Assembly: GCA_030691735.1 (NCBI GenBank)
Contig: JAUYDS010000122.1
Span: 1 to 57,496, forward strand
Direction of reading: 5' to 3'
Length of the DNA stretch: 57,496 nt
Origin: Candidatus Aminicenantes bacterium
GTDB lineage: Bacteria > Acidobacteriota > Aminicenantia > Aminicenantales > UBA4085
Shown piece after piece: positions 11,451-30,052 of this stretch; the stretch's first letter is position 1; every line of letters starts with the position of its first letter. The position numbers were made by a program, and so were the translations under genes. Under the pieces are notes generated by a model, which was not told the DNA's origin, ran no database searches, and saw nothing but the letters and a program-made list of their open reading frames with translations.

Positions 11451-13688
11451 TCAATAGATCAAGCTTTCGTTGCCGGTGGCGTCCACGCAGGCGACGGCGT
11501 AGACGTAGTCGCTGTCTTTGGGCACGTTGCGGTCCACGTAGGTCAGGATGCCCGGCGCCACTTCGGTGAGACGGGCCCATTGAGTGTCGCTCTCGGTCCT
11601 CAGCTTCCGGAAAATTCGTTGGGCGACGATCACGACTCCCTGTTCGACGTTCAGGGGATTGGCCTCCCAGGAGAGAACGTTGAGGTAATAGCCGTTGAAG
11701 AAACCGCGCTCGACCTTCTTCTCCACGTTGAGGTTGATGGGGGACTGGACCCGCAAACGAAAATTGGCCTTGACCGTCATGTCGCGATCCATCGTGACGG
11801 TGACGGGAGTGGTCGTTCCGGAAGCGTCTCCCGACCAAGACGTGAATTCAACCCCGACGTCCGCAATGGCCCTGACGCTGACGCTGCTTCCCTTATTGAT
11901 CCGATATGTTCCCGGACTCGGGTTTGTCGTTCCGCCGGCGCCGGCTTGGATCGTCAACGTCTGTTGGGGGGTGAAATTGGCTTTGACCGTCATATCGCGA
12001 TCCAAGGTGATGGTGATGGAAGCGGCATTTCCGGAGGCATCACCCGACCAAGACGTGAATCCATAGGCGGCGTCCGCTATGGCCCTGATACTGACGCGGC
12101 TGCCCGTATTGATCCGATATGTTCCCGGACTCGGGTTTGTCGTTCCGCCAGCACCGGCTTGGATCGTCAACGTTTGTTGGGTGGTGAAATTGGCCTTAAC
12201 CGTCATGTCGCGATCCAAGGTGATGGTGATGGAAGCGGCAGTTCCGGAAGCGTCACCCGACCAAGACGCAAATCCATAGGCGGCGTCGGCAATGGCCCTG
12301 ATGCTGACGCTGCTGCCTTTATCGTAGCGATAGACGCCCGGGCTAGGGTCCGTCGTTCCGCCGGTACCGGTTTGGATCGTCAACGCTTGTCTGGGAAGGC
12401 CGGGGGGGTCGACACTCACGGTGGTCAGGAAGACGTTGGCGGGCTCGTTGACTTCGCCCCAGGCGATGAGCATCTTGTCGTACCCGGAATACAAGTCGAA
12501 ATTATCGACCGCGCCGGTCGTGATCTGGGCGACCTGGATCCATTGGAACGTCAATTCATCGAATTTCAAGAGGAATAGAATCCTTCCGGAGTTCATGACC
12601 GCCGCGTAGAAATCCTTGCCGTGCGCGACCAGCCTCGACCAGAACGTGCACCAGGGATTCATCGAAAGGCCGGTATTGAGGGGGATCCGGGAGGACAGAG
12701 TCTCGGCCGCGGGATCATAGAGCCTGGCCTGGTAGTCGCCACCCGTGGGAAAAGCCCAGAGCGTCATGACCTTGCCCTCGTTGTTGACGGCGACCGTGGG
12801 CCAAAAGGACCAGCCCGTGCTGGTGGAAACGAGCTGCCAGCCCTCCATTGGGTCTATGTCGACCGCATCGTTGTTCTGGTCCCAATGGCTCAATAAGATG
12901 ACCAGGACATCTTCTGCGGGATTCGGATTATATTGGTAATCGTTCTTATGGACCACCCAGATATTGTCTTTGGAGTCGACGGCGAACCAAGCCTGGCACG
13001 AGCCTTCTTGGTCGTTGGTCAGGTTTTTGGGGGTCCGGAATTGGGAGTCGGTCTTTCCTTTGGCGTAGAGGAAGACGTTTTTGGTCAGATAGCCGGGGGG
13101 GATGATCTGGCTGTTAAGGGTGAGCACCTCGTCGTTGGAGCGCACCGCGACAGTGGTCCCCATATCGTTCTTGCCGGACATCTGTTGTTTGAAGGGCGTT
13201 GTCCATACCCCGTCAAGGAACGAACCGTAGACAGCGAAGTTTTGGGGCTCATCCCAGGTGCAATGAAAGCGGCCGGTGCTGTCCGCCTCTACATCCACAT
13301 TACTGATAATTTTTTCCTGGATACTGATATTAGGCTGCTTGGGGATTCTGGCCGGGGAGCTCCAGGCCTCGCCTTTCTTGCAGGTAGTGTACCAAAAAAA
13401 GTTATCGCTGCCCCTGAAGACGACCAGGCGGTCGCCTTTGGAGTTCTCGGCAACCCCGGGATAGCGATTGTTGCCGCCCAGGTTGCCCGTGAGATTGATG
13501 GTCTCGATGATCGGAGCTTCCACCACCTGGGGCCGCGTCGTTCCGGCCGTGCCGGTCCATTGATCGGCGGGCTTCATGGTCATGGCGGTTGTCGGGTCCT
13601 GCGCCCCGGACGAGGCGGCTATAACCATCCCCGCGATGATCACGGATATGACCATAAGAAGGACCACAGGAAAAATGGCTCTTCTCAT
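11451..13688 (-). CDS. Secreted protein: beta-propeller-like N-domain, three InlB-type B-repeats, FN3-like C-terminal domain
   Basis: Signal peptide; blade-like DSTGRFHCTW/VDSKDNIWVV; three 71-aa LTIQ..GGTT.P.PG.Y..F.SWSGDASG..DRDMTVKANF repeats. Confidence 0.85.
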   Translation of the reverse strand: MRRAIFPVVLLMVISVIIAGMVIAASSGAQDPTTAMTMKPADQWTGTAGTTRPQVVEAPIIETINLTGNLGGNNRYPGVAENSKGDRLVVFRGSDNFFWYTTCKKGEAWSSPARIPKQPNISIQEKIISNVDVEADSTGRFHCTWDEPQNFAVYGSFLDGVWTTPFKQQMSGKNDMGTTVAVRSNDEVLTLNSQIIPPGYLTKNVFLYAKGKTDSQFRTPKNLTNDQEGSCQAWFAVDSKDNIWVVHKNDYQYNPNPAEDVLVILLSHWDQNNDAVDIDPMEGWQLVSTSTGWSFWPTVAVNNEGKVMTLWAFPTGGDYQARLYDPAAETLSSRIPLNTGLSMNPWCTFWSRLVAHGKDFYAAVMNSGRILFLLKFDELTFQWIQVAQITTGAVDNFDLYSGYDKMLIAWGEVNEPANVFLTTVSVDPPGLPRQALTIQTGTGGTTDPSPGVYRYDKGSSVSIRAIADAAYGFASWSGDASGTAASITITLDRDMTVKANFTTQQTLTIQAGAGGTTNPSPGTYRINTGSRVSIRAIADAAYGFTSWSGDASGNAASITITLDRDMTVKANFTPQQTLTIQAGAGGTTNPSPGTYRINKGSSVSVRAIADVGVEFTSWSGDASGTTTPVTVTMDRDMTVKANFRLRVQSPINLNVEKKVERGFFNGYYLNVLSWEANPLNVEQGVVIVAQRIFRKLRTESDTQWARLTEVAPGILTYVDRNVPKDSDYVYAVACVDATGNESLIY
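11759..12397 (-). repeat. Three tandem 213-bp intragenic repeats
   Basis: AAATTGG anchor recurs at 11761, 11974 and 12187 with high nucleotide similarity; outer edges approximate. Confidence 0.9.
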
Positions 13689-13854
13689 TATAATTATCCT
13701 TCTTTTTTTTATCTTTTATACAAATACAAGTATTTAGAGATAAAGTCAAGATTCTAATGATAAAGGGGAGAACGGCGAAAATCAAAAAGATGCGTCATGA
13801 TCAGGGAGTCCAGACCTCTCCCCGGGTTCTGAAGGTCCTTTTCGCGGGAGGGTC

Positions 13855-14478
13855 TTAGAATCGAGCCACGAGGCCGATGCCGAATTCCTTGCCTCCGAGG
13901 TTCAGTTTCGTGCTGTCGTCGGGAAGCGGGTAGTCCAGCGTCTTTATGACATCGTTCAAGCGGACGAAAACCTTTCCCGCCAGGAACTTGGTGATGTTGA
14001 CGTACGTCCCGAATTGGATGTGGAAACCGACGGCGTTGCCGCTGGCCCCCTTGATGTCGGTCGTCCCCTCGATCGTCTCGGAGTAGGAATAGGACTCGAG
14101 CCCGGCGCCGATGAACGGCTCGAAGCGAGCGGTTGAGAAGAGGCGATAGAGGACGCCGAAGGAAGCCATGTTGAGCCGGAACTTGTCGGCGAGGCCCTCA
14201 TAAGTCGTCTTCGTTTCTTCGCCGTAGATGCGGTAGGAGACCCAGACGTCGATGTTGTACAGAGTATGCGCGGAAGCCTCGAAACCCGGGACGTTCTTCT
14301 GGGAATGACCGTAAAACCTCGTCAGGTTCTTGTCGTCGATCTGGAGCCCTTCCCAATAGAACCCGGCCCGGAACCTCGGCTGGTCCACCCCGGTCTCGTC
14401 CGGGGCGGCGGAAGCCGCCGTCGCCGGCCCCAGGATCAGGAAGACCGCAAAGAGGCATATCAGCAAGGTTGATTTCAT
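13855..14478 (-). CDS. Small outer-membrane beta-barrel protein (OmpW/OmpA-barrel-like)
   Basis: Signal peptide ending ASA, amphipathic strands, PFIGAG, C-terminal GIGLVARF; GAGGA SD before ATG 14478 (alternative start 14490). Confidence 0.82.
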   Translation of the reverse strand: MKSTLLICLFAVFLILGPATAASAAPDETGVDQPRFRAGFYWEGLQIDDKNLTRFYGHSQKNVPGFEASAHTLYNIDVWVSYRIYGEETKTTYEGLADKFRLNMASFGVLYRLFSTARFEPFIGAGLESYSYSETIEGTTDIKGASGNAVGFHIQFGTYVNITKFLAGKVFVRLNDVIKTLDYPLPDDSTKLNLGGKEFGIGLVARF

Positions 14479-14505
14479 GATGGTCCTCATTTCGTCAGAC
14501 GATCT

Positions 14506-16440
14506 TCAATAGATCGAGCTTTCGTAGCCGTTGGCGTCCACGCACGTGACGGCGTAGACGTAACCGCTGGTTCTGGGCACGTTGCGGTCCACGTAGGTCA
14601 GGATACCCGGCGCCACCTCGGCGAGAAGCGTCCATTGAGGGTAGCTCTCGGTCGGCAGTTTTCGGTAAATTCGTTGCGCGGCGATCACGACCCCATGTTC
14701 GCTGTTCTGGGGATTGGCCTCCCAGGAGAGAACGTTGAGGTAATAGCCGCTGAAGAAACCGCGCTCGATCTTCTTCTCCACTTTGAGGTTGATGGGGGAC
14801 TGGACCCGCAAACGAAAATTGGCCTTGACCGTCATGTCGCGATCCAGCGTGACGGTGAGGGGAGAGCTCTCTCCGGAAGCGTCTCCCGACCACGAAATGA
14901 ACCGATACGCGGCGTCCGGAAGGGGCCTGATGCTGACGCTGCTGCCCTTATTGTACCGATATGAACCCGGACTCGGGTCTGTCGTTCCGCCGGCACCGGC
15001 TTGGATCGTCAACGTTTGTTGGAGGGTGAAATTGGCCTTGACCGTCATATCGCGATCCAAGGTGAAGGTGATGGGATTGGAATTTCCGGAAGCATCGCCC
15101 GACCAAGACGTGAATCCATAGGCGGCGTCCGCGATGGCGCTGACGCTGACGCTGCTGCCGCGATCGTATTTATAAGAACCCGGAGCCGGGCTTGTTGTTC
15201 CTCCGGAGCTGGATTGAACCGTCAACGTAGATTGCGGGGGGCCGAGGGGTTCGACCTCCACGGCCGTCAGGAAGACGTTGGAGGGCTCTTCCCAAGAATT
15301 CCAAGCGACGAGCATCCTGTCGTATCCGGAATATATAGACATCATTTCGACAGGTCTATCCGAAACCTGGGCGACCGGGATCCATCTGGATGTCGCTTCG
15401 TCGAATTTCAGGAGGTAGAGGATCCTTGCGGGAGATATGGCCGCGATGTAGAAATCCTTGCCGCGGTCGGTCAGTTTCGAAAAGAAGGTGTGCCAGGGAT
15501 TCCTGCAAAGTCCGATATCGAGGGAGACCATAGGGCCCAGCTTCTTGGTCGCGGGATCATAGAGCCTGGATAGGTATTGGCCGCTGGTGGATTGGGCCCA
15601 GGCGGCCATCACCTTGTCCTCGCTGTTGACGGCAACCTGAGGCAGGAAGGCCCAGCCCGGGTTGGATGAAACGACCAGCCAGTCGATGTCCCCATCATTG
15701 TAGTTCTTATCAAACGGGGCCAAGTAAATGACCAGGTTCTCCTCTACGCCTGGGAGATGGTAGTCGCTCTTCCAGACCACCCAGATATTGTCTTTTGAGT
15801 CGACGGCGAGGTGGGGCTGGGTCGAGCCTTCAGCAGGATCCCTGGTCAGGTTTTTTTGAGCCCGGAATTGGGTTTCATTCTTTCCCTTGGCGTGGACCCA
15901 GATGTCTTTGCTATAACCGAGAACCTCGCAGTCGACGGTGACCACCTCGTCGTCGGAGCGCACGGCCATCCCGCTCGTCTGATCATAAACTCCGATCGAT
16001 GGTATCTTGAAGGGGGTTGTCCAAATCCCGTCGCGGAACGAGGCGTAAACGGCTCCGTTGGCGTGCTCCCATTCGCAATGAAAGCGGTCGGTGCTGTCGA
16101 CATGGATATACGCGTAGAGACTTCTAACGAGAGACGGCTGGCTGCCTATGGATTTTGGGGAGCTCCAAGTCCCGCCTTTCTCGCAGTAAACGTAATAATA
16201 TTTGTTGCCCTCGGGGCCTCTGAAAATAACCAGACGGTTTCCTTTGGAGTCCTCGGCAACAGCGGGATGGCGATAGTTTTGATTTGCGCCGGCAAACGTA
16301 AGCTGGTAAGTCTCGACGATCGGGGCTGGCACGACCTGGGACGATGTCGTTCCAGGAGTGCCGGACGAGGCGGATATGGCAATTCCCGCGGCGATGACGA
16401 TTATGGCCGATAAGGTCAAAAGCATAACTACTCTTCTCAT
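14506..16440 (-). CDS. Paralog of 11451-13688 with two B-repeats and the same C-terminal domain
   Basis: Signal peptide, collinear N-domain motifs, two 213-bp repeats (anchors 14816 and 15029), near-identical C-terminus. Confidence 0.85.
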   Translation of the reverse strand: MRRVVMLLTLSAIIVIAAGIAISASSGTPGTTSSQVVPAPIVETYQLTFAGANQNYRHPAVAEDSKGNRLVIFRGPEGNKYYYVYCEKGGTWSSPKSIGSQPSLVRSLYAYIHVDSTDRFHCEWEHANGAVYASFRDGIWTTPFKIPSIGVYDQTSGMAVRSDDEVVTVDCEVLGYSKDIWVHAKGKNETQFRAQKNLTRDPAEGSTQPHLAVDSKDNIWVVWKSDYHLPGVEENLVIYLAPFDKNYNDGDIDWLVVSSNPGWAFLPQVAVNSEDKVMAAWAQSTSGQYLSRLYDPATKKLGPMVSLDIGLCRNPWHTFFSKLTDRGKDFYIAAISPARILYLLKFDEATSRWIPVAQVSDRPVEMMSIYSGYDRMLVAWNSWEEPSNVFLTAVEVEPLGPPQSTLTVQSSSGGTTSPAPGSYKYDRGSSVSVSAIADAAYGFTSWSGDASGNSNPITFTLDRDMTVKANFTLQQTLTIQAGAGGTTDPSPGSYRYNKGSSVSIRPLPDAAYRFISWSGDASGESSPLTVTLDRDMTVKANFRLRVQSPINLKVEKKIERGFFSGYYLNVLSWEANPQNSEHGVVIAAQRIYRKLPTESYPQWTLLAEVAPGILTYVDRNVPRTSGYVYAVTCVDANGYESSIY

Positions 16441-16472
16441 GAGTACTCTCCTCTAAAATTTATGGGCTATTT

Positions 16473-16501
16473 TTTATACAGGTTTTTAGAAAAAAAGTCA
16501 A
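16473..16501 (-). promoter_or_regulatory. Sigma70-type promoter for the secreted protein/beta-barrel pair
   Basis: Minus strand TTGACT-N17-TATAAA. Confidence 0.55.
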
Positions 16502-16607
16502 CCTCCCGCCGATGGGATAAAGGAGATACGGGACGCGTACTCGTTACGCTGGGTCAAAGTTCCGAAGTCAGCCCCTAAGACGCCGGGGTCCCTTCGGGCT
16601 ATCGATT

Positions 16608-19205
16608 TTACTTTCGAAGGACGCGGACCGTCTTGATCTCGAAGGGATTCAAAGTCAACGTCAGCGCCGCCCCGCTCCCCTCTTCTTTGGCCAGGGGCCG
16701 TTCGATCAGGTCTGTTTCCGCGGACATCACCGGCCAGGGAAATTCGATCCGGGCCTCGGTCTTCCGGCCGAAGGCTTCATAAACGCGCAGGATCAGGCCG
16801 CGGCTGTAGTATCCCGTCTCTTTTTTCAAGGCCGAAAGAAAAACGTTCTCCGGTCCGACCGTGACGAAGGCCCGGCTCGCGGGCAGCGACCCGGGATGGG
16901 ACATCGCCAGGCGAGGCAGAAGCGGATTGTTGAATTCGTAGCCTCGCCGGGCCGTTTGGGCCTCTTTCCAATCGCCGCGATGGGGATAGAGCGAGTAATA
17001 AAGCTCCTGGGAGCCCCGATCGGCCTCCGGGTCGGGAGTCGTGGCGCCGTGGACGACGGAAAGCCGGAGGACATTTCCCTTCATATCGTGGCCGTATTTC
17101 CGGTCATTGAGAAGGCCGACGCCGAAGCGGCCGGATTCGTCGGTCGCATCCGCCCAGCGGATCGCGGGGACCTCCGTGCCGTCCGTCTTGCGGGAGATAG
17201 AGCCGTAAGGGATTTCGAACTCCGCTTTGTCGGTCTTCAAGTTCAGCGGGAAAGCGGCCTTGATCATCAGATTCCGTTCCTGCCAATTCAGGCCGGTCCT
17301 GAAGTCGATCCGCGGGACGCCCGCGGTGAGGATAATGTCCTGGGTAAACGACGAGCGGCGGAACTTGCTCCGGACGCGGATGACGGCCCGGACCGGCCCG
17401 GATTCGACGAGCGTGATCCGCGCGCCGTCCTCGCCGATGGCCCCGGCCTGATCCTTCAGTCCGAGCTCCCAGGCGGACATGTTCTGGGGCTCGTCCGTGA
17501 TCGCCTGAAGGACGTTGCCCGGTCCTTGGAGAACTTCTCGGCCGTTCGTTTTGTCCAAAATGCCGGCGAGCCATCCCGTCTTGGGATCGATCCTCACCTT
17601 GAAAAATTCGTTTTCGAGGCCGTCCGCGCCGGCCGTGAGCGCCGTTTTGAACGCGGGGGCTTGATCGGCCGGCAGGACCCTGAACATCTTGTACCCCAAG
17701 GACGGCACGCGCCCGGCGATGAAAACGACGCGCGCCGTCAGGGGAGCGCCCGGAGACGATTCCGGAAGGATTTGATAGGGGATCTCGGCGCCGTCGGCGT
17801 CGACGAGTTTGAACGCGCCGGATTTTCCCTCCCCGATCAATTCGTGGCCCAAAGCTCCTTGGAAGGAAGGCAGGGACGGCGGGATTTTCCCGCCGGACCG
17901 TTGGGAGGAAACCCGTTCAAAGGGTTTCCTTCCAAGAGTGACCTGCCGGGGCAGGCGGCAGACCACGGGTTCCGTTCGCTCCCAGGCCAAAGGATTGTAA
18001 ACCACCACGGGAACGCCTTCGCCGCGCGTGTCGATATCGTTGGTGATCGTTTCCAGAGAAAAATCGAGGGCCCGCTGGCCGCGGTCCATGGCCGTTTTAT
18101 AAAAATCGCGGACCTCATCGTAAACGGGACCGATGCTCGAGCCGTCCAGGATGTCGTGGAACTGGTTGCGGAGGACGATCTTCCAGGCTTCGTCGATGTC
18201 GCGCTCGGGGTAATAGTCCCTGAGTCCCAGGGCCACGGACAGAGCGGAAAATTTCTCCGCGGTCACGAGCAGTCCCTCGGCTTTCCGGTTGTTCTTTTTG
18301 GTCTCGGCCTGCGTCGTGTAGCAGGCGGGGAAGGTGAAATTCAATTCGTCGCCGAACGACGGAAGTCCGGCTTTTTGCGCCTCCAGGATCTTGAAATAAT
18401 CTTCCGGAGTGACGAATTCCAGGCGCGGCTGGTTATTGTCCTTTCCGAATCTCCGGATCGCCTCCAGGTCCGAGTCCCGCGGGCCACCGCCGTGGTCCCC
18501 TTCGCCGTAGAGGATCATGACATCCTTGAGGGGCGAAATCTTGGCCGCCTCGAGGACCACGTCTTTGATCCCGTTCTTCAAGCCGACGTTGTACCAGCCT
18601 TGAGGAACGTACGAGAGAAGCTGCGATCCGTCCTTGCCCCGCCAGACAAAGGCGGGCATTTTGTCCGGCGCGCACCGACCGAAGACATAATACTTGAGTC
18701 CGGCCTTGGCCAGGATCTGGGGAAGCTGCCAATTATGTCCGAACGAATCCGGGTTCCAGCCGACCTTTACGTCCACGCCGAACTTTTGGAGGAAATATCT
18801 TTTGCCGTAGAGGAGCTGGCGGGCCAGGGCTTCGCCGTCGGGCATGTTCAAATCGGGTTCGACCCACATCCCCCCGACCGGAACCCACGTCCCTTCCTTG
18901 ATCTTGTCCCTGATCGCCTGGAACAGCTCGGGATAGTCCTTTTCGATGGCCTCGTAGATCGCAGCCTGGCTCTGGGCGAACGTCAGGCCGGGCATCTTGT
19001 TCATCTGGACGAGCGTTCCTTTGAACGTCTCGACGGCGACGTCATGCACGGTCTCCTCCCAGCGCCACAGCCAGCTCAGGTCGATATGAGCGTGCCCGAC
19101 GAGACGGGCGGTGTAATCCCCCGGCTTGAGCGTTTGAGCGGATAAGCCCGCGCCGAGAAGAACGAACGCCAGAAATGTGGACGCGAATGCCTTCGATGTT
19201 CGCAT
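16608..19205 (-). CDS. Exported glycoside hydrolase family 38 (alpha-mannosidase-like)
   Basis: GHAHIDLSWLW, GGMWVEPDLN, WNPDSFGH, GDHGGGP, NQFHDILDGSSI; signal peptide. Confidence 0.92.
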   Translation of the reverse strand: MRTSKAFASTFLAFVLLGAGLSAQTLKPGDYTARLVGHAHIDLSWLWRWEETVHDVAVETFKGTLVQMNKMPGLTFAQSQAAIYEAIEKDYPELFQAIRDKIKEGTWVPVGGMWVEPDLNMPDGEALARQLLYGKRYFLQKFGVDVKVGWNPDSFGHNWQLPQILAKAGLKYYVFGRCAPDKMPAFVWRGKDGSQLLSYVPQGWYNVGLKNGIKDVVLEAAKISPLKDVMILYGEGDHGGGPRDSDLEAIRRFGKDNNQPRLEFVTPEDYFKILEAQKAGLPSFGDELNFTFPACYTTQAETKKNNRKAEGLLVTAEKFSALSVALGLRDYYPERDIDEAWKIVLRNQFHDILDGSSIGPVYDEVRDFYKTAMDRGQRALDFSLETITNDIDTRGEGVPVVVYNPLAWERTEPVVCRLPRQVTLGRKPFERVSSQRSGGKIPPSLPSFQGALGHELIGEGKSGAFKLVDADGAEIPYQILPESSPGAPLTARVVFIAGRVPSLGYKMFRVLPADQAPAFKTALTAGADGLENEFFKVRIDPKTGWLAGILDKTNGREVLQGPGNVLQAITDEPQNMSAWELGLKDQAGAIGEDGARITLVESGPVRAVIRVRSKFRRSSFTQDIILTAGVPRIDFRTGLNWQERNLMIKAAFPLNLKTDKAEFEIPYGSISRKTDGTEVPAIRWADATDESGRFGVGLLNDRKYGHDMKGNVLRLSVVHGATTPDPEADRGSQELYYSLYPHRGDWKEAQTARRGYEFNNPLLPRLAMSHPGSLPASRAFVTVGPENVFLSALKKETGYYSRGLILRVYEAFGRKTEARIEFPWPVMSAETDLIERPLAKEEGSGAALTLTLNPFEIKTVRVLRK

Positions 19206-19392
19206 TTTTCCCTCCGCGCACGTCGTGGGCCGGATTATATCACAGCCGCAAAGGGGGCAAAAACGACAAGTGTCCCCATTTTTTTTATTTTCAGCGCTAT
19301 TGTTTTGACATTTTTATTTTGATAGAATCACAACCTTTAGGGAGGCTCCGATCATGCTCCGCATGATAATTATACGGTAAGGGAAGGGAAAT

Positions 19393-19701
19393 ATGTTTAT
19401 ATGGGTTTTCCATCGCATCAGCGGCCTGTTACTCATCCTTCTGTTGGGAATCAAATTCCTGACCTCCTTCTTTCTCATGACCAAGGGGCAAAAGCCCGAT
19501 TGGGCCCTTGTCCTCCACGCCAATCCTCTCACCGACACGTTCCTGATCGTGGCCGGCGTCTACCACGCCTTCTACGGACTGAGGACCTTCATCATCGACT
19601 GCGGCGTGCGCAAGGAGAAGCTCCTCTTCTGGATCTTCACCGGCCTCGGCACCGCCACCACCGCCGCCCTGCTGGTCATTTACTACACCAGGAACTACTG
19701 A
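19393..19701 (+). CDS. sdhC: Succinate dehydrogenase/fumarate reductase small membrane anchor (3 TM)
   Basis: WVFHRISG and YHAFYGLR motifs; directly upstream of the flavoprotein. Confidence 0.8.
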   Translation: MFIWVFHRISGLLLILLLGIKFLTSFFLMTKGQKPDWALVLHANPLTDTFLIVAGVYHAFYGLRTFIIDCGVRKEKLLFWIFTGLGTATTAALLVIYYTRNY

Positions 19702-19704
19702 GCT

Positions 19705-21402: not shown

Positions 21403-21416
21403 GGAGAGAGCCGACC

Positions 21417-22145: not shown

Positions 22146-22600
22146 GAATCGACAACGCCTATTTCACCCGCCGCAAGTTCTTGAACTCGATCCTCGGCGG
22201 CTGGCTGGGGGCCGTCGCGGCCTCTTTCATCAGCCCCATCGTCAAATTCGTCTGGCCGCCCTACAAAGAGCCGGACGAGGTCAAGCTTGTCTTCGCCGAT
22301 TATTCCGGCATGCAGCCGGGCGAAGTGAAGAACTTCGCTTGGGGCAGCAAGCCCGGGCTCATCAAGCGGGCGCCGGACGGATCCTTCATCGCCTGGGTCG
22401 GCGTGTGCACCCACCTCGACTGCAACGTGGCCTGGCTCCCCGACAAGAAGCAGTTCTTCTGCGCCTGCCATGACGGCTGGTACGACGAAAACGGAACGAA
22501 CGTCTCCGGCCCGCCGCCCAAGCCGCTCCGGCGCCTCGAGTCGTCGGTTGAAGGCGAGGACCTCTTCGTCCGCAAGCCGGGCGTGGGAGCAAAAACATGA
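22142..22600 (+). CDS. qcrA: Rieske [2Fe-2S] protein of a Rieske/cytochrome b complex
   Basis: Tat-like TRRKFL anchor, CTHLDC and CACHDG boxes, GPPPKPL; ATGA overlap with sdhB. Confidence 0.9.
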   Translation: MRIDNAYFTRRKFLNSILGGWLGAVAASFISPIVKFVWPPYKEPDEVKLVFADYSGMQPGEVKNFAWGSKPGLIKRAPDGSFIAWVGVCTHLDCNVAWLPDKKQFFCACHDGWYDENGTNVSGPPPKPLRRLESSVEGEDLFVRKPGVGAKT

Positions 22601-23667
22601 AGATCGACATGAAAAAGCTCGCCGCCTGGTTCGACGACCGATTGGCCTTGACCCCCATCTTCAAATACATGACCAAGAAGGAAGTGCCCCAGCACGAGCA
22701 CTCCTTCTGGTATTACACGGGCAGTTCGATCCTCCTCTTCCTCTTCATCCAAATCGTCACGGGCATCATGCTCGCGCTCTATTACCAACCGACCCTCGAA
22801 GGGGCCACGGACAGCATCGGCCGGATCATGACCGAGCTTCCGCTGGGCTGGCTCATCCGCTCCGTCCACAGCTGGTCGTCGACGTTCATGATCGCCTTCG
22901 TCATGATCCACCTCCTGGCCATCTGGTTCACCAAATCCTACCGCAAGCCGCGGGAAGCGACCTGGATGACCGGGATGATGCTGCTTGTCGTCTCGATGGT
23001 CTTCGGCTTCACCGGCTACCTCCTGCCCTGGGACGACCTGTCGCTGTCGGCGACCAAGGTCGGGACGAACATCCCCATGGCCATCCCCGTGGTCGGCAAG
23101 TGGGTGACCCAGTTCCTCCGCGGCGGCGGCGACGTCACCGGCGACACGCTGACGCGCTTCTACCTTTTCCATGTCTGCATCCTGCCCCTTGTCATCTTCG
23201 CCATCCTCGCCGTCCACATCCTCCTCGTCCAAAAGGAAGGCATGAGCGTTCCTCTCAAGGACGAGATCGCCAAGAAGAAAGTTCCGGCCCTGCCCTTCTG
23301 GCCCAATTTCATCCTCCGCGAAGTCGTCATCTGGCTCGTCCTCCTCGGCGTCCTTCTGACCATCTCGCTGGCCTTCGCCCCCTCTCTGGAACTTACGGCC
23401 GACCTGATGGCCCCGGCCCCGGAAGGCGTCAAACCCGAGTGGTATTTCCTGTTCCTCTTCCAGACGCTCAAGATCTTCCCGGCCAACATGGGCCCCGTCA
23501 CCGGCGAGTTCGTGGCCGTGGTGCTCATCCTGATCGCCGTCGTGGCCATCTTCTTCCTGCCCTTCATCGACAACAAGCCCGAAGGGAAGAAAGGCAAGCT
23601 CATCCAGTACCTTGGCGTCGCCGGCCTGATCTACGCGATCGTCTTCAGCATATGGAGCCTGTTATGA
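22597..23667 (+). CDS. qcrB: Cytochrome b of a Rieske/cytochrome b complex (unsplit)
   Basis: Four heme His (RSVH..MIH; LFH..AVH), FTGYLLPWD, KPEWYFLF; ATGA overlap with Rieske gene. Confidence 0.92.
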   Translation: MKIDMKKLAAWFDDRLALTPIFKYMTKKEVPQHEHSFWYYTGSSILLFLFIQIVTGIMLALYYQPTLEGATDSIGRIMTELPLGWLIRSVHSWSSTFMIAFVMIHLLAIWFTKSYRKPREATWMTGMMLLVVSMVFGFTGYLLPWDDLSLSATKVGTNIPMAIPVVGKWVTQFLRGGGDVTGDTLTRFYLFHVCILPLVIFAILAVHILLVQKEGMSVPLKDEIAKKKVPALPFWPNFILREVVIWLVLLGVLLTISLAFAPSLELTADLMAPAPEGVKPEWYFLFLFQTLKIFPANMGPVTGEFVAVVLILIAVVAIFFLPFIDNKPEGKKGKLIQYLGVAGLIYAIVFSIWSLL

Positions 23668-24095
23668 GAAAGATCCGCGTTTTGTATCTCCTGGTGATGG
23701 TCCCGGTGGTCCTGGCCCCGCTGGCGGCGGTCGCCCAGCCATCGGGGGTGCCGCCGACCGTCAAGGACAAAGCCCAGATAGAGGCGGCGGTTGCCGCCCA
23801 GGCAGCGCCGACGCAGCAGGCCAAGCCCGCCCCCGCTCCGCCCGCCGCCAAGAAACCGGCGGCCAAGAAGGCCGAGGTCAAGAGAACGGAGCCGATCGTT
23901 CCCGCCTATTCCGGCATCAGGGAAAAGATGGCCGTCATCGTTTTCTACGTCTGGCTCTGGTTCTCGATCGCCGTCCTGATCTATTTCCTCCGGCTGTGGA
24001 TCAAGGAGGCCGACCGGGTCTACAAGGCCAAATACTACGAGCCCGAGGAGAGCCCGCGGAAGGACAATCCCATGGCCCCGGTGCTGGGGGATTGA
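23664..24095 (+). CDS. Hypothetical membrane protein (signal peptide, Ala/Pro/Lys linker, one TM helix)
   Basis: ATGA overlap with cytochrome b stop, host-like codon usage, no CxxCH. Confidence 0.72.
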   Translation: MRKIRVLYLLVMVPVVLAPLAAVAQPSGVPPTVKDKAQIEAAVAAQAAPTQQAKPAPAPPAAKKPAAKKAEVKRTEPIVPAYSGIREKMAVIVFYVWLWFSIAVLIYFLRLWIKEADRVYKAKYYEPEESPRKDNPMAPVLGD

Positions 24096-24159
24096 AACGC
24101 CGCTCATTTTTTTTCGGCCCGGATCGGCGTAAAGTGTAATCTTATCCTAAAGGGGACCC

Positions 24160-24411
24160 ATGGCAGACACAGAGCAGAAGAAAAAAGGTCTCGGGTCGGT
24201 CGTCATCAACGCCGAACGCTGCAAAGGCTGCGGCTTCTGCGTGGAGTTCTGCCCGACCCATTGCTTGGAGCTTTCCGAACAGTACAACGCCAAAGGCTAC
24301 CATCCCCCCGTGCTGACCCTCCCGGAGAAGTGCACCGGCTGCAACATGTGCGGGTTGCTCTGTCCGGATTTCGCCATTTACGGCTTTCTGTTCAAGAAAA
24401 AGAAAAAGTAG
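24160..24411 (+). CDS. korD: 2x[4Fe-4S] ferredoxin, delta subunit of 2-oxoacid:ferredoxin oxidoreductase
   Basis: CKGCGFCVEFCP and CTGCNMCGLLCPDFAI. Confidence 0.88.
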   Translation: MADTEQKKKGLGSVVINAERCKGCGFCVEFCPTHCLELSEQYNAKGYHPPVLTLPEKCTGCNMCGLLCPDFAIYGFLFKKKKK

Positions 24412-24420
24412 GAGATTCAC

Positions 24421-25590
24421 GTGAAAGCAGATCCCAAAGGCGTCGTGGCCGGCGCGTATTTCATTGACGGCGATCATGCCTGCGCCGAAGGGGCCATCGC
24501 GGCGGGCTGCCGCTTCGTGGCCGGATACCCGATCACGCCGTCGACAGAGATCGTGGAGCGGATCGCGGAACGCTTCCCGCTCATCGGAGGGATGTTCATC
24601 CAGATGGAGGACGAGATCGCCTCGTCCATCGCCATCCAGGGCGCGGTCTGGGGAGGCAAAAAGGCGATGACCGTGACCTCGGGCCCCGGTTTCTCCCTGA
24701 TGATGGAGCATATCGGCCTGGCGGCGATGACCGAAACGCCCTGCGTCTTCGTCGACGTCCAGCGGGGGGGTCCATCGACGGGGCTCCCCACGCTTCCCGG
24801 GCAAGGCGACATGATGCAGGCCCGCTGGGGTTCCCACGGCGACTACGGCATCATCGCCCTCTGTCCCAACTCTCCGCAGGAAAGTTTCGACCTGACCATC
24901 AAGGCCTTCAATTTGGCGGAGCAGTACCGCGTTCCCGTCCTGGTCATGCTCGACGAGTGCGTGGGACACATGACCGAGCGCGTCGTCGTCCCGCCGGCGG
25001 ACGAGATCGAGATCACTCCCCGCCGCTATTGGGACGGGCCTAAAGAAGGATTCCTCCTCTTTAAGGCCGGGCCGGACCGCGTGCCGCCCATGGTCAAAGC
25101 CGGGGACGGATACAACATCCACGTGACCAGCCTGACCCACGACGAACGCGGCTACCCCGTCATGACCGCGGCCGCCCAGGAGAAACTGGTCCGGCGCCTG
25201 ATCGACAAGATCCGCCTGAACTCCGACGCCATCGTCGAGTGCAGGGAAGAACAGACCGCGGGGGCCGATGTCGTCATCGTTTCCTACGGGATCACCTCGC
25301 GCATCGCCATCCCGGCCATCGAACAGGCCCGCCGGGAAGGCGTCAAGGTCGGGCATCTCCGGCTCATCACCGCCTGGCCTTTCCCGGCCAAGCGGATCCG
25401 GGAGCTGTCCCACCACGTCTCGTGCTTCGTCGTCCCCGAGATCAACTACGGGCAGATGGTCCGCGAAGTGGAACGCTGCGTCGCCGGGCGAACCCGCGTC
25501 GAGCGCGTCTCCCACGGCGGCGGGGCCGTCCACAATCCGAAAGACATCTACGCCAAGATCATGAGCTGCGGGAAGGAAGAACGGAAATGA
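24421..25590 (+). CDS. korA: 2-oxoacid:ferredoxin oxidoreductase alpha subunit
   Basis: AGYPITPSTE, QMEDEIAS, TSGPGFSLM, QRGGPSTGLPT; GTG start after AGGAG; substrate not determinable. Confidence 0.9.
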   Translation: MKADPKGVVAGAYFIDGDHACAEGAIAAGCRFVAGYPITPSTEIVERIAERFPLIGGMFIQMEDEIASSIAIQGAVWGGKKAMTVTSGPGFSLMMEHIGLAAMTETPCVFVDVQRGGPSTGLPTLPGQGDMMQARWGSHGDYGIIALCPNSPQESFDLTIKAFNLAEQYRVPVLVMLDECVGHMTERVVVPPADEIEITPRRYWDGPKEGFLLFKAGPDRVPPMVKAGDGYNIHVTSLTHDERGYPVMTAAAQEKLVRRLIDKIRLNSDAIVECREEQTAGADVVIVSYGITSRIAIPAIEQARREGVKVGHLRLITAWPFPAKRIRELSHHVSCFVVPEINYGQMVREVERCVAGRTRVERVSHGGGAVHNPKDIYAKIMSCGKEERK

Positions 25591-26462
25591 CCGAAGAATC
25601 CATGGACATCGACATGAGCATGCCGACCAACACAGTGGAGGAATTCCTGCGCATGGAGCGCATGCCGCACATCTGGTGCCCGGGGTGCGGCATCGGGACG
25701 ACGGTGAACTGCTTCGCCCACGCCCTCGAGACGAGCGGGCTGGACCTGAAAAAGGTCTCGATCGTCTCCGGGATCGGCTGCACGGGGCGCGTCGCCGGCT
25801 ACTTGAAGCTCGATTCCTTCCACACGACCCACGGCCGGGCCCTGCCCTTCGCCACGGGCCTCAAGCTGGCCAACCCCGACCTCAAGGTCGTCGTCTACAG
25901 CGGCGACGGCGACTTGACGGCCATCGGCGGCAACCACTTCATCCATGCCGCCCGCCGGAACGTGGACATGACCGTCATCCTCATCAACAATTTCATCTAC
26001 GGGATGACCGGCGGCCAGGTCGCGCCGACGACGCCCATCGGAGCGACGGCCTCGACCGCGCCCTACGGCAATTTCGAAGAGCCTTTCAATCTGCCCTATC
26101 TCGCCGAGTCGTGCGGGGCGGTCTACGTCGCCCGCTGGACGGCCTACCACGTCCGCCACGCGACCAAGGCCATCAAGGACGCCCTGCTGAAGAGGGGCTT
26201 CTCCTTCGTCGAGATCCTCGCCCCCTGCCCGACGCTCTACAGCCGGAGGAACCGGCTCGGGGACGGCCTCGACCAGATGAAATTCTACAAAGATAACAGC
26301 GAGATCAAAAACGGCGCGGACACGAAGACCCTGGGCTTGAGCTTCCAGGGCAAGATCATCGTCGGGAAGTTCGTCGACAAGGACAAGCCGACGTATCTCG
26401 ACTCCATGAACGCCTTCTACGCCCAGAAATTCGGCGATACGTATTCGCCTTACAAAGGATAA
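25587..26462 (+). CDS. korB: 2-oxoacid:ferredoxin oxidoreductase beta subunit
   Basis: WCPGCG, SGIGC, HGRA, TPP motif GDGD..NN, YGMTGGQ. Confidence 0.9.
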   Translation: MTEESMDIDMSMPTNTVEEFLRMERMPHIWCPGCGIGTTVNCFAHALETSGLDLKKVSIVSGIGCTGRVAGYLKLDSFHTTHGRALPFATGLKLANPDLKVVVYSGDGDLTAIGGNHFIHAARRNVDMTVILINNFIYGMTGGQVAPTTPIGATASTAPYGNFEEPFNLPYLAESCGAVYVARWTAYHVRHATKAIKDALLKRGFSFVEILAPCPTLYSRRNRLGDGLDQMKFYKDNSEIKNGADTKTLGLSFQGKIIVGKFVDKDKPTYLDSMNAFYAQKFGDTYSPYKG

Positions 26463-26467
26463 GTCCC

Positions 26468-27022
26468 ATGGCCAGAACGGAAATCAAGATCGGCGGGTTC
26501 GGCGGACAGGGCGTCATCCTCAGCGGCTACATCATCGGCCGGGCGGCGGCCATCTACGACTCCAAGCACGCGACCATGATCCAGGCCTTCGGCCCGGAAG
26601 CGCGCGGGAGCGCCTGCAGCGCCCAGATCGTCGTTTCGGCGGAACCCATCGCCTATCCCTATATCACCACCCCCCAGATCATGATCGTCATGTCCCAGGA
26701 AGCGTACACGAAATTCTCTCCGGAGCTCGCCGAAGGCGGGATCCTGATCACGGAAGAGGAGTTGGTCAAGACCCACAACCTGCGCAAGGACCTGAAGCAC
26801 TTTTCGATCCCGGCCACCCGCTTCGCCGAGGAGCTCGGCCGGAAGATGGTCCTCAATATCGTCATGATGGGCTTCATGACCTCCGTCACGGGGATCGTCG
26901 GGGTCGAGGCGATGCGCCAGGCGGTGAAAGTGTCCGTCCCGAAGGGGACGGAGCACTTGAACCTCAACGCCTTCAACAAGGGATTCGAGTACGGCGAGAA
27001 GCTCAAGTCCGGAGCGGCCTGA
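26468..27022 (+). CDS. korC: 2-oxoacid:ferredoxin oxidoreductase gamma subunit
   Basis: GFGGQGVIL, FGPEARGS, N..AF.KG. Confidence 0.9.
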   Translation: MARTEIKIGGFGGQGVILSGYIIGRAAAIYDSKHATMIQAFGPEARGSACSAQIVVSAEPIAYPYITTPQIMIVMSQEAYTKFSPELAEGGILITEEELVKTHNLRKDLKHFSIPATRFAEELGRKMVLNIVMMGFMTSVTGIVGVEAMRQAVKVSVPKGTEHLNLNAFNKGFEYGEKLKSGAA

Positions 27023-27047
27023 GCGATTCTGTCATTCTAGACAGTGC

Positions 27048-27161
27048 TGTCATCCTGAGCGCAGCGAAGGATCCGACTCGAAGAGTCGTCCCGAGTCTTT
27101 CGAGGGATCTCATCCAACGACTCGAAACCTAATGGGATTCTTCACTTCGTTCATCATGACA
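27048..27161. repeat. REP-like imperfect inverted repeat (TGTCATCCTGAGC family), copy 1
   Basis: TGTCATCCTGAGCGCAGCGAAGGATCC pairs with GGATTCTTCACTTCGTTCATCATGACA; a related copy lies at 31675. Confidence 0.75.
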
Positions 27162-27505
27162 ATTGATTAGCGCGGCAATCACCACAAACGATTCAAATCT
27201 CGGCGATCGCCACGTCTATTTCAGTGACAGTCAACTCAATCCCAAAATTCATATTTTTTGAGTTATCTGTCACCATAATTGTCAAGCCTGTTTCATATAT
27301 CTGATACTTCTTAGAGCATATGGGGCCTTGAGCGATTGTGAACTTGCGAAGGAATAGAGAAGTTTCGCATTTGACATACTCGTTTTTATTAATTACTTTT
27401 CTTTTTATAAGGGGAAGGAGAGACTCTGAAAAAAGTCTACGATCTATTGCCTGGACCAAGTAGATAATCCTTTATAATTTATTAAGCACGCAAAAGGAGG
27501 GGACA

Positions 27506-29776
27506 ATGACCATTCAGAAGTTCTGCAAACGCGGAAGAATTATCCTGGCCGTTTTCGCGATTCTTCCGTTTATTTCCGTTGTTCCTGCGTTTTCCCAGGA
27601 GCAAGGGGAGAAGCGGCAGCTCGTCGACATGCATCTTCCCCTTCAATGGACGCAGGGCTATACGCTCATTCTCCTGGACGAAAAGGACCTCCATGCCGTG
27701 AATGATGCTAAGGAATATATCGAGGAAAGTGGCGGTTCGATCGCGATCTTTTCCAACGCGAAGGCCATGCTCGGATGGGTCCCACGGACAATCGCCCCTC
27801 TCCTTGTCGGTAAGCACGGAATCAATTCCATTCATTACGAGCAGGTCGATGCCGGTACCCTCAATGCCCAGGACGAGATCTCGTTGTCCTTGGTCAAATT
27901 TTTCAATTCGGTTGTTACGGGTGAAGTGGAGCGGCAGTATCATTCCCTCCGTTGGCAGGGGGATCCGCTGGTCAATGATGTCCTCGAGCATCCCTTCGTC
28001 AACCCGGCCGAGGTCGCTAAGAATCTCGAGGACAAGAATATCGCATGGGATGCCGAGCTGGCCCGAACCGCGGCGAACGGAGGCGTTTTTCCGGGTTATT
28101 CCGATTCTATGACTGGCACTGTCGCTTGTTGCCTTTTTTTCGTCGAAAGTAATGGTACGATCGACAGTAATCTATATACGTGGACGACTTCAGCCAGAGA
28201 TCAAGTCATAAATCAATGTTTATCGGGGGCCTCCTGGTGGGCGAGTCGAGGGAGCTCCAATGGCATTTCGGTCTCGTTTTATATCTATTATTATTCACCT
28301 GACAGTTCGGCGATGAAGCAGGGATATGAGCCCATTCTACATAGGTCTAACGAAGATTCTCTATGGATTAATGCGATCATGGCAAATTTGGGGTATTCTT
28401 CTGGAACAAAATTTGACCGGGTCACGTCCTTTAATGGCTGGCTGAAAAGCTATGCGGGTTCCAATTGGGCATATCCATGTTTCTTCGCTTATAATCCTTC
28501 GGGCGCTCCCTCTACCTTCACCGACGGCTACTTTGCCTATGCCTATCCGGGCGGTCCCTACTCCCAAATGCTGTATCGTAACGATGGCTGGTCGATCTCT
28601 GATATCTGGAGTACCTACGCCCATGAGACGGGACATATTTTTTGGGCCTGCGATGAATATTATCAGGCCGGCTATGGGGGATGCACGAGCTGTTCTCCAT
28701 GCAGCAGCTATCGGCCCGTTACGAACGGTAATTGCGAACATCCGAGCTGTAATCCGGGCGGTTCCGTCGCTTGCATGATGAAAAACAGCAGTAATGCCTT
28801 GTGTTCTTATACGGTGGCCCAAGTCGGATGGCAGAGTTCACCTCAAACACAAATATTGACAATCCAATCCAGCTCCGGGGGAACGACGAACCCGACGCCA
28901 GGGTCATACACATATGATAAAAATAGTAGCGTGAGCGTCAAAGCCAATCCGGATGTCAATTATCGCTTTTATAATTGGTCCGGAGACGCCTCCGGGACAA
29001 GCAACCCCATAACCATTCTTATGGATCGGGACAAGACGATAAAAGCGAATTTTGTACGTCAATATAGCTTGACGATTCAAGCAGGCGAAGGAGGCACGCC
29101 ATCTCTTTCCCCTGGAACCTATAAATATGATACGGGAACGACAGTCGAAGTGACGGCCGTTCCAAACATCAATTATGAATTCGTCAACTGGAGCGGCAGT
29201 ATCTCCAGCACGCAGAACCCGGTGACGATCACCATGGATAACGATAAGACAATCATGCCCGTTTTCCGCCTGAAGCCCAAATTGACCATTCAGTCAAACG
29301 AGTTCGGGACCACGAATCCAAGTCCCGGCGTTTATTATTATGCCACCGGCACCCAGGTCCAAATCAGCCCCCTCCCCAAAACTTATTGTATTTTCATCAG
29401 CTGGAGCGGCGACGCGACGGGAAGCGCGGACCCGCTTGTCGTAACAATGGACAGGGATAAGACCGTCTCCGCTTATTTTCGGTACATCTATGGGCCGATC
29501 TTGACGGGACGAAAAGTTTTGAACCGGACCTTCTCGCAAGCGGAATACATCAATATCCTGTCCTGGCGGGCCGACCCGGCCAACGAGGGGCTGGACATCG
29601 CCCTATACAGAATCTATACCATGAGCGGCGATACTCCGACGCTGCTGGTTGAGCTCACGGGCGACCAAATTGAGTACTACCATCGCAAGGCGGGACAGGC
29701 GAGCATTCAGTATGCCGTTCGGGCGGTCACGAGCAGCGGCCGTGAAGGCGCGCCGGCCCTGGTCACCGTTCAATGA
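27506..29776 (+). CDS. Secreted zinc metallopeptidase with three B-repeats and an FN3-like C-terminal domain
   Basis: Signal peptide, HETGHIFWACDEY, Cys-rich segment with CMM turn, three LTIQ..WSG..MD.DKT repeats; AGGAGG SD. Confidence 0.85.
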   Translation: MTIQKFCKRGRIILAVFAILPFISVVPAFSQEQGEKRQLVDMHLPLQWTQGYTLILLDEKDLHAVNDAKEYIEESGGSIAIFSNAKAMLGWVPRTIAPLLVGKHGINSIHYEQVDAGTLNAQDEISLSLVKFFNSVVTGEVERQYHSLRWQGDPLVNDVLEHPFVNPAEVAKNLEDKNIAWDAELARTAANGGVFPGYSDSMTGTVACCLFFVESNGTIDSNLYTWTTSARDQVINQCLSGASWWASRGSSNGISVSFYIYYYSPDSSAMKQGYEPILHRSNEDSLWINAIMANLGYSSGTKFDRVTSFNGWLKSYAGSNWAYPCFFAYNPSGAPSTFTDGYFAYAYPGGPYSQMLYRNDGWSISDIWSTYAHETGHIFWACDEYYQAGYGGCTSCSPCSSYRPVTNGNCEHPSCNPGGSVACMMKNSSNALCSYTVAQVGWQSSPQTQILTIQSSSGGTTNPTPGSYTYDKNSSVSVKANPDVNYRFYNWSGDASGTSNPITILMDRDKTIKANFVRQYSLTIQAGEGGTPSLSPGTYKYDTGTTVEVTAVPNINYEFVNWSGSISSTQNPVTITMDNDKTIMPVFRLKPKLTIQSNEFGTTNPSPGVYYYATGTQVQISPLPKTYCIFISWSGDATGSADPLVVTMDRDKTVSAYFRYIYGPILTGRKVLNRTFSQAEYINILSWRADPANEGLDIALYRIYTMSGDTPTLLVELTGDQIEYYHRKAGQASIQYAVRAVTSSGREGAPALVTVQ

Positions 29777-29787
29777 AAGGAGCAGCC

Positions 29788-30052
29788 ATGATTAGAAAAA
29801 TAGGAATCGTCCTTGTTTTGTTTCGGAGCGGGCTTCGGATATTACATGTACGATGAGAAGAGCGCCGCGTTCGGCGAGGCCAAAAAAAGCAATATCGGTT
29901 TCTGCGTCGTGGGCGGCACTTCCATGCGGGTTCTCAAGAGCCTGGCCCTGGACTGCCGTATAAAATACAGCACCTGCAGCCTGAAGCCGGCCGATTTTAA
30001 GGTCAATATCGGCGGTTTGACCTTTGGCTTTGGATTAGGTTTGGGCTTCTAA
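29788..30052 (+). pseudogene. Internally deleted, frameshifted small OM beta-barrel gene homologous to 13855-14478
   Basis: AAGGAG plus ATG 29788 gives MIRKIGIVLVL then an early stop; another frame encodes the C-terminal barrel half FGAGFGYYMY..NIGGLTFGFGLGLGF. Confidence 0.7.

Follow-up and report, generated by a model that had tools for sequence, protein, structure and literature searches.

Class-matched pairing of an FN3-type C-terminal domain with small OmpA-like barrels in Aminicenantes, a candidate surface anchor for exported enzymes

The DNA window analyzed here is a stretch of 57,496 nucleotides from Candidatus Aminicenantes bacterium (contig JAUYDS010000122.1 of assembly GCA_030691735.1). 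It encodes three exported proteins, P0001, P0002 and P0003, which end in related, divergent fibronectin type III (FN3) domains, together with the small OmpA-like barrel P0004 and the remnant of a second barrel gene. In the genomes of the order Aminicenantales, genes for such FN3-tailed proteins (hereafter cargo) and genes for such barrels are linked, and the sequence class of the barrel matches that of the tail; in a structure model, the long hairpin of the tail is predicted to enter the mouth of the barrel. The most likely mechanism, to which we give slightly better than even chances, is a class-coded plug-and-socket anchor by which exported enzymes would be displayed at the outer membrane. 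Little is known about how exported enzymes are kept on the cell surface in diderm bacteria outside the well-studied phyla; Aminicenantes, which are uncultured, abound in groundwater, sediments and digesters. The features of the window that concern the tail and the barrel are as follows.

11451-13688, minus strand: cargo gene P0001, 745 aa, paralog of P0002, three B-repeats, class III tail at 11451-11768
13855-14490, minus strand: P0004, predicted outer-membrane barrel, 211 aa, signal peptide, eight strands, C-terminal Phe, class III
14506-16440, minus strand: cargo gene P0002, 644 aa, signal peptide, head without known family, two B-repeats, class III FN3-type tail
14506-14823, minus strand: FN3-type C-terminal domain of P0002, 105 aa plus stop codon, row 1 of the 37-tail alignment
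14743-14772, minus strand: tip of the long A-B hairpin of P0002 (tail residues 18-27), predicted barrel-mouth contact, coordinates derived from residue numbers
27506-29776, plus strand: cargo gene P0003, 756 aa, signal peptide, HExxH-bearing head, three B-repeats, class II FN3-type tail at 29474-29776
29788-30052, plus strand: class II barrel remnant, start and beginning of a signal peptide followed in a different frame by the final ~76 codons

The positions and translations of the three cargo reading frames agree with a preliminary description of the window, which had been made from the sequence and had read the C-terminal domain as a docking or export tag with a cognate barrel. All three N-termini are hydrophobic, and, as that description had stated, no Cys lipobox was seen in their translations. 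The stalk of B-repeats that it had reported was recovered as matches to Pfam Flg_new_2 (PF18998, InlB B-repeat), in three stretches of P0001 (E 1.3e-34, 118.4 bits), two of P0002 (E 7.5e-27, 93.6 bits) and three of P0003 (E 6.8e-32, 109.7 bits), all above the gathering cut-off of 23.6 bits. The shared C-terminal domain of about 100 residues was also confirmed, with 32% identity between the homologous tails of P0001 and P0003 over 96 aa (E 3e-9). P0001 and P0002 are paralogs (identity 57% in the head, 76% in the C-terminal 242 aa), so that the window contains two independent cargo types and not three. The head of P0003 is unrelated to that of P0001 and P0002, and its HExxH motif is visible in the translation. 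No Pfam match was obtained for the heads, which the preliminary description had labelled propeller-like and zinc peptidase, and P0002 and P0003 have no sequence match in the PDB.

Two of the three cargo genes are followed by a barrel gene, as had been described, with gaps of 11-15 nt, and one of the two barrels is a deletion remnant. On the minus strand, P0002 is followed after 15 nt by the P0004 gene, and the latter after 166 nt by P0001, which lies downstream of the barrel gene and has no barrel of its own. The barrel itself proved real, but its start lies at 14490; the position given before, 14478, is the second in-frame ATG, from which the distance to the P0002 stop would be 27 nt. A promoter and terminator scan gave counts like those of shuffled sequence, and no RNA run containing the locus was found.

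The AlphaFold2 (AF2) model of the tail, built with 37 homologues, has a mean predicted local distance difference test (pLDDT) value of 87.8. It is a seven-strand β-sandwich of FN3 topology, in which the first two strands (residues 11-21 and 26-35) are unusually long; the FN3-like domain with an extended first hairpin of the preliminary description is thus recovered in the model. All top matches of the model among solved structures in Foldseek are FN3 domains (TMq 0.62-0.74), including those of neogenin, titin, growth-hormone receptor and the phage T1 tail tip. By sequence, none of the three window tails matches Pfam fn3 (PF00041) even at E 10, nor any Pfam or NCBIfam model over threshold; the terminal domains of relatives reached 20.0-24.3 bits in five of 28 proteins, against a gathering cut-off of 25. 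Judged from the modelled fold, the tail is a divergent FN3 member with a long A-B hairpin, although it is not one by the curated Pfam model. Its nearest structural neighbours are the FN3 domains of the phage tip attachment protein J and the phage T1 tail tip (Pfam Ig_J, E 0.12; 9l9p_S, TMq 0.73, rmsd 2.0). Unlike the tail, these are internal modules of phage fibres, and we know of no barrel-binding relation for them. Among 37 frames from the fetched loci, the last tail copy ends within 11 residues of the C-terminus in 33, and six frames carry more than one copy. The tail is mostly, but not strictly, terminal.

P0004 matches Pfam OMP_b-brl (PF13505, OmpA-like clan) with 32.4 bits, above the gathering cut-off of 28.7. 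Its AF2 model (pLDDT 90.8) contains eight strands and one short helix in the first loop, and the fold matches comprise the OmpA transmembrane domain (1bxw, TMq 0.73), NspA, OmpX, Ail, OmpW and OprG. The score, the eight modelled strands and the C-terminal aromatic residue place P0004 in PF13505, so that its family has the same predicted fold and OMP_b-brl membership as OmpA, OmpX, NspA, Ail and OmpW. Different from that family, P0004 and its relatives have a loop-1 helix with a conserved Tyr and genes located directly 3' of genes for FN3-tailed proteins. The Tyr is kept in 91% of 32 barrel rows and is the best-conserved non-glycine residue of the family, which is unusual for a surface loop. 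The second barrel gene of the window is a remnant that has lost its middle part. Its ATG (29788) lies 11 nt past the P0003 stop behind an AGGAG, and the signal-peptide-like start ends after 22 codons; the second frame (29804-30052) codes only for the last ~76 barrel residues. This frame aligns with the C-terminal third of full barrels, scoring weakly with P0004 (E 0.054) and far better with the barrel on contig C147 of the same genome (E 1.1e-11) and with the family profile (E 1.1e-22).

Some members of the barrel family carry N-terminal fusions, namely AMIN, SH3_3 and membrane-fusion-protein domains. AMIN or SH3_3 precedes the barrel in L026:3193-4581, L023:1452-2564, L001:3938-4771 and the barrels of L024 and L030. 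As these domains are of peptidoglycan-binding types, such proteins would be tethers between outer membrane and wall, with the domain order reversed relative to OmpA, which carries its peptidoglycan-binding type domain C-terminally. The AMIN-barrel genes tend to be convergent to the cargo gene. Two 935-aa proteins (L026:366-3170 and L029:1329-4133), each convergent with an AMIN-barrel gene, are each built from five FN3-variant copies and contain no further recognized domain. HlyD-type membrane-fusion-protein domains are N-terminal to the barrels of L043:778-3804, L044:457-2532, L045:723-3620 and protein P0155, and two of these genes lie directly 3' of FN3-tailed genes. In P0155, a P0004-like barrel (40% identity) comes after a coiled-coil hairpin and adaptor domains; it is unusual for a periplasmic adaptor to have its own eight-stranded outer-membrane anchor. 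In L041:1040-2812 and L042:830-2569, proteins of ~590 aa, BiPBP_C and three PKD domains precede a C-terminal family barrel, which would put Ig-like domains on the presumed periplasmic side or imply a topology unlike that of OmpA. Long frames that end in the barrel carry PKD, HlyD-like, AMIN or no known domain, and no FN3 tail; a search for longer proteins gave a single one, in which a membrane-fusion protein is fused to the barrel. One apparent tail-barrel fusion in G020:C201 turned out to be an assembly N gap.

The linkage of tail and barrel genes is real and extends through the sampled genomes of the taxonomic class. The genome of the window encodes the tail in eight frames and five clear members of the barrel family, three of which are directly 3' of a tail gene (at the P0002 locus, at the P0003 locus and behind a reprolysin-like protein on contig C147). 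Among 41 genomes of the order, the tail was found in 40 and the barrel in 41. We first counted pairs among the best 150 rows of each of the tail and barrel tables, with one barrel row, the second piece of the C147 gene, dropped. In this count, a barrel of the family lies no more than 1.5 kb downstream of 41 of 134 tail-bearing frames, in the same direction for 30 and convergent for 11, whereas about 0.3 pairs would be expected by chance, as we estimate from about five barrels per 3-Mb genome. In 30 of 33 pairs, the barrel ATG lies -14 to 67 nt from the stop of the cargo gene (median 11 nt); for the other three, the signal-peptide rule gave no start. The same pairs were seen in other orders of the taxonomic class, mostly after S8 subtilases. 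Four barrel loci (one partial) from other Acidobacteriota have no adjacent FN3 tail, a sample too small to indicate absence.

The heads joined to the tail are diverse, as the preliminary description had proposed. They comprise papain C1 with a lectin-like domain, C10, M10, M12, M28 and S8 peptidases, BNR/sortilin and lactonase-type propellers, FG-GAP, PKD and an AAT-type hydrolase, in at least 12 head architectures overall. At L005 (G001:C90:1-8132), the ortholog of the P0002/P0004 locus, three consecutive FN3-tailed genes are followed by one barrel gene, an arrangement that suggests several cargo proteins per barrel in one operon. Locus L036 (CAZPAX010000021.1) combines an Aminicenantes-type barrel and an FN3-tailed gene on a contig labelled 'uncultured Eubacteriales', probably a binning or labelling error.

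Pairs were recounted with class-specific profiles in the 41 genomes of the order, the class-I tails being those with E <= 3.5e-28 (the next row has 1.6e-25). In class I, 38 of 55 tails are directly followed by a class-I barrel, 37 of them on the same strand, and these account for 38 of the 47 class-I barrels; a 39th barrel follows an incomplete tail across an N gap. In class II, which includes P0003, a class-II barrel directly follows 30 of 67 tails, and these pairs take up 30 of the 43 barrels. Not one of the 68 pairs is mismatched in class, and each class spans several head types. Heads of the C1-plus-lectin type are joined to class I tails in some proteins and to class II tails in others, and each time the barrel belongs to the class of the tail. 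The distance matrices of tails and barrels are correlated (Mantel r 0.81, reached by none of 5000 permutations), 21 of 31 pairs have concordant nearest neighbours, and the class-I clade contains the same 11 of 11 rows in both maximum-likelihood trees. Positions that discriminate between the classes, nine in the barrel and three in the tail, show no clear pattern.

Presence of tail and barrel agrees genome by genome as well. For class I, 31 of the 41 genomes have both, nine have neither, one has the tail only and none the barrel only (agreement 40/41), and presence varies within genera. For class II, the corresponding numbers are 27, 10, two and two (37/41). When the genome of the window was searched with class models that lacked its own rows, its tails and likewise its barrels were assigned to classes II, III and IV, with no member of class I or V among either. 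In G026, a genome in one contig, a class-I tail gene lies 2 Mb from the sole class-I barrel gene. The phyletic pattern, this separation and the class match in the window's genome fit use of the barrels in trans. The per-genome numbers of tail and barrel matches, which are not copy numbers, correlate modestly (Spearman 0.52).

These counts bear on two explanations without docking. The cargo 3' end and the next gene could travel together as a neutral cassette, with heads swapped by recombination upstream and no functional relation between the products; co-inheritance alone would account for the class matching, the Mantel correlation and the co-loss. However, the linkage is maintained across orders of the taxonomic class and with no fewer than 12 head architectures, a tail and a barrel of matched class are found together even at a distance of 2 Mb (G026), and the complex model described below passes its controls, so that we regard a neutral cassette as highly improbable. 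In the other explanation, cargo and barrel are functionally coupled, the barrel being an OmpW/OprG-like product-uptake channel or an envelope stabiliser and the FN3 tail a spacer or substrate-binding module. The heads are mostly peptidases, OmpW and OprG are among the fold matches of the barrel, the FN3 core is generic, and many tails and barrels are unpaired, all of which such coupling would accommodate. It would not lead one to expect that the barrel class tracks the tail class and not the head type, with no mismatch in 68 pairs and many heads per class, or that the complex model passes at the very hairpin that distinguishes this FN3 variant. We consider it unlikely.

To model the complex, mature P0004 (32 aligned homologues) was combined with the P0002 tail (37) using our own alignments, the cargo head not being included. 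The complex scored 0.63 (0.62-0.76 in three runs), compared to 0.01 for the best of three controls; in the calibration of the method, this mark was reached by 58 of 80 solved complexes and by two of 110 mismatched pairs. All contacts (100%) are common to the runs, and the pLDDT of the partner is at least 84. On the tail side, the contacts are formed by residues 18-27 and 29, at the tip of the long hairpin, and by residues 80-81. On the barrel side, they involve residues 27-28 and 31-32 in the first-loop helix, 67-70, 74 and 76 in the second loop, 110, 112 and 116-121 in the third, and 157, 159 and 161-162 in the fourth. All barrel contacts are located in or next to the four loops, opposite both termini, and the hairpin tip is predicted to sit in the mouth of the barrel on its loop side. 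The termini of OmpA-like barrels face the periplasm; the modelled docking site would therefore be extracellular. The N-terminal AMIN, SH3_3 and membrane-fusion-protein fusions likewise fit periplasmic termini and an extracellular loop side.

The model also bears on three explanations in which the barrel acts otherwise. The barrel might be an export or assembly helper that the cargo needs to reach or cross the outer membrane, for example by co-assembly around the hairpin at the β-barrel assembly machinery (BAM). A precedent of this kind is RcsF, which is threaded through OmpA/C/F. The median spacing of 11 nt is compatible with translational coupling, the modelled hairpin lies inside the barrel mouth, and markers of a type IX secretion system (T9SS) were not found. 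However, the eight-stranded barrel has no pore for a folded protein of ~600 aa, some tails are far from any barrel gene or internal, and two secretin genes would provide an ordinary route; these features make a helper distinctly unlikely. Alternatively, the barrel could retain the cargo at the periplasmic side of the outer membrane and sort it into outer-membrane vesicles, as OmpW of Pseudomonas putida is reported to tether the periplasmic DypB into vesicles (PMC13592688). Such a periplasmic tether or vesicle loader would suit the periplasmic-type N-terminal domains of the barrel family, but every modelled contact is on the loop side, opposite the termini, and we judge it very improbable. Finally, the small protein could be an inhibitor or immunity factor cognate to the peptidase encoded next to it, in keeping with the gene-pair logic of the potempin-KLIKK peptidase pairs of Tannerella (PMC9890683). 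This deserves hardly any credence: the partner is an integral eight-stranded membrane barrel, it also follows non-peptidase heads (propellers, FG-GAP, PKD), and the modelled contact is on the FN3 tail and not on the head, which was absent from the model.

In the anchor that we favour, the cargo would be exported by Sec as a multi-domain protein whose last module is a long-hairpin FN3 plug. After export, the tip of the hairpin would enter the extracellular mouth of a barrel of the same class, and the enzyme would thus be held on the cell surface, the presumable purpose being retention of hydrolases there. Tails without an adjacent barrel gene would use a same-class barrel encoded elsewhere. In the window, P0001 would share P0004 with P0002, and the partner of P0003, whose own barrel gene has decayed, would be the intact class-II barrel encoded on contig C147. 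The cargo might cross the outer membrane by a type II system, since two secretin genes are present. A wider reading, which we put forward tentatively and at somewhat less than even chances, is a modular class-coded display system, a Gram-negative counterpart of cohesin-dockerin, with specificity set by the hairpin tip, sockets in cis and in trans, and five or more classes of plug and socket among the genomes sampled from the order and the taxonomic class. Such a system would anchor proteins at the surface by a principle that has no relation to lipidation, T9SS, sortases or autotransport.

Several observations weigh against the anchor. The tail profile finds 56,199 cluster representatives (E <= 0.001) and its core is generic FN3; the best matches are giant multi-FN3 proteins that align from about profile position 30 onward. 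With the core being ordinary FN3, the distinguishing part would be the N-terminal hairpin. Full-length copies with the hairpin also occur internally, five in each of the two 935-aa proteins and two in several others. No adjacent barrel is present for 17 of 55 class-I and 37 of 67 class-II tails, and no adjacent tail for nine of 47 class-I and 13 of 43 class-II barrels, some of the latter genes being at contig ends. The 11 convergent pairs of the first count are not co-transcribed, since their genes face each other, and no fusion of tail and barrel exists among the frames and longer proteins searched. Co-inheritance of adjacent DNA segments would produce the class matching, the Mantel correlation and the tree agreement too, so that these point to a long-lived cassette and not to co-evolution; the deeper branching differs between the two trees. 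The complex score is the model's own confidence, obtained from our alignments, and the OmpA-nanobody complexes 9fzc and 9fzd are among the best fold matches of P0004. Owing to such solved complexes, an Ig-like hairpin in a barrel mouth may be partly remembered by the model. How ~600-aa cargo crosses the outer membrane is left unexplained by the anchor.

Measured against these data, the observation in the preliminary description is confirmed and its interpretation is partly supported. Its expectation that the domain is always terminal failed, owing to the full-length internal copies in tandem arrays. That the domain is followed by the barrel gene holds far above chance and in a class-matched manner, but only for about half to two thirds of the class-assigned tails. 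The opposite picture, an ordinary FN3 domain found internally and without barrel co-occurrence, agrees with the internal copies and the generic core, but the co-occurrence with the barrel is real. The anticipated complex of domain and barrel was predicted by the model, with the hairpin tip placed in the barrel mouth. Of the two roles proposed for the domain, docking is thus modelled, whereas export is unsupported, because an eight-stranded barrel alone cannot be a translocon.

Beside the tail and barrel genes, the window contains neighbours worth recording. The P0002/P0004/P0001 locus is flanked by two PMT_2-type glycosyltransferases and one GH38 α-mannosidase (7927-9543, plus strand; 9646-11391 and 16608-19205, minus strand), which may hint at glycosylation of envelope proteins. 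Directly 3' of the barrel remnant, 30182-31591 (plus strand) codes for a membrane protein of 469 aa that matches the TLC ATP/ADP transporter family moderately well (52.8 bits), a surprising gene for a free-living groundwater bacterium.

If the anchor is true, two very common folds would yield a new anchoring principle. The surface enzyme set of a genome could then be predicted from sequence, as a class X FN3 tail together with a class X barrel, and conserved loops of small OmpA-like barrels could mark protein docking. The pair would also provide a small orthogonal tag and receptor to be tried for surface display in laboratory Gram-negative hosts.

Like the tail-barrel pairs as proposed here, T9SS of Bacteroidota uses a C-terminal β-sandwich, carried by diverse enzymes and recognized by an outer-membrane barrel, as in the C-terminal domain (CTD)/PorV, PorQ-PorZ and PorV-PorU pairs. 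The shared logic comprises diverse exported enzymes, the C-terminal β-sandwich and barrels that hold surface proteins. Different from T9SS, the barrel here has eight strands and not the 14-stranded FadL-like fold; no translocon, sortase or anionic lipopolysaccharide (A-LPS) step is in evidence; there are many class-matched barrels in cis instead of one shuttle, and the tail also occurs internally. As the preliminary description had stated, the system is not recognizably T9SS, nor were PEP-CTERM markers found, although the controls were silent too. The proteins of the window have no NCBIfam or Pfam CTD match. In the genome of the window (92.5% complete), there was no sequence match to Por_Secre_tail or SprA (PF18962 and PF14349), but the control genomes were also silent, which leaves absence of the machinery unproven.

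For PEP-CTERM, PF07589 had no match in the same genome (controls silent), and the tails end in a β-strand with no hydrophobic helix. Autotransporters and other type V systems combine a passenger with a 12-stranded barrel or a 16-stranded partner barrel; the barrel here is a separate gene product with eight strands and no POTRA. Slam/type XI and two-partner barrels are 14- or 16-stranded translocators with tetratricopeptide repeat (TPR) or POTRA domains, and their cargo are lipoproteins or proteins with a two-partner secretion (TPS) domain. These systems resemble the pairs in that the cargo gene adjoins the gene of a dedicated outer-membrane barrel, but the TPR, POTRA and TPS features are absent here, as are a lipobox in the three N-termini and any Pfam match of the Slam/type XI kind (DUF560), and the barrel has only eight strands.

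In the cohesin-dockerin system of Gram-positive cellulosomes, many hydrolase heads share one docking module, and type-matched receptors are located at the cell surface. The tail-barrel pairs would have in common with it the shared C-terminal docking module and the type-matched receptor. However, the receptor here would be an outer-membrane barrel and not a scaffoldin module, the docking module has an FN3 hairpin and is not an EF-hand dockerin, and there is no homology. By analogy, the logic of the pairs appears closest to that of T9SS CTDs with PorV/PorQ and to that of cohesin-dockerin.

An eight-stranded tether is also described in PMC13592688, where OmpW of P. putida is reported to sort DypB into vesicles. 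As in the tail-barrel pairs, an eight-stranded barrel would tether a specific exported enzyme; the contact reported there is periplasmic and made with an N-terminal hydrophobic region of a cargo lacking a signal peptide, and the abstract mentions neither an FN3 tag nor gene pairing nor classes. A literature search, which excluded most subscription journals and supplements, found no description of the tail-barrel pairing. Taken together, the parts are ordinary, namely one divergent FN3 domain and one OmpA-like barrel, whereas their class-matched pairing and the modelled contact of hairpin and barrel mouth appear to be new.

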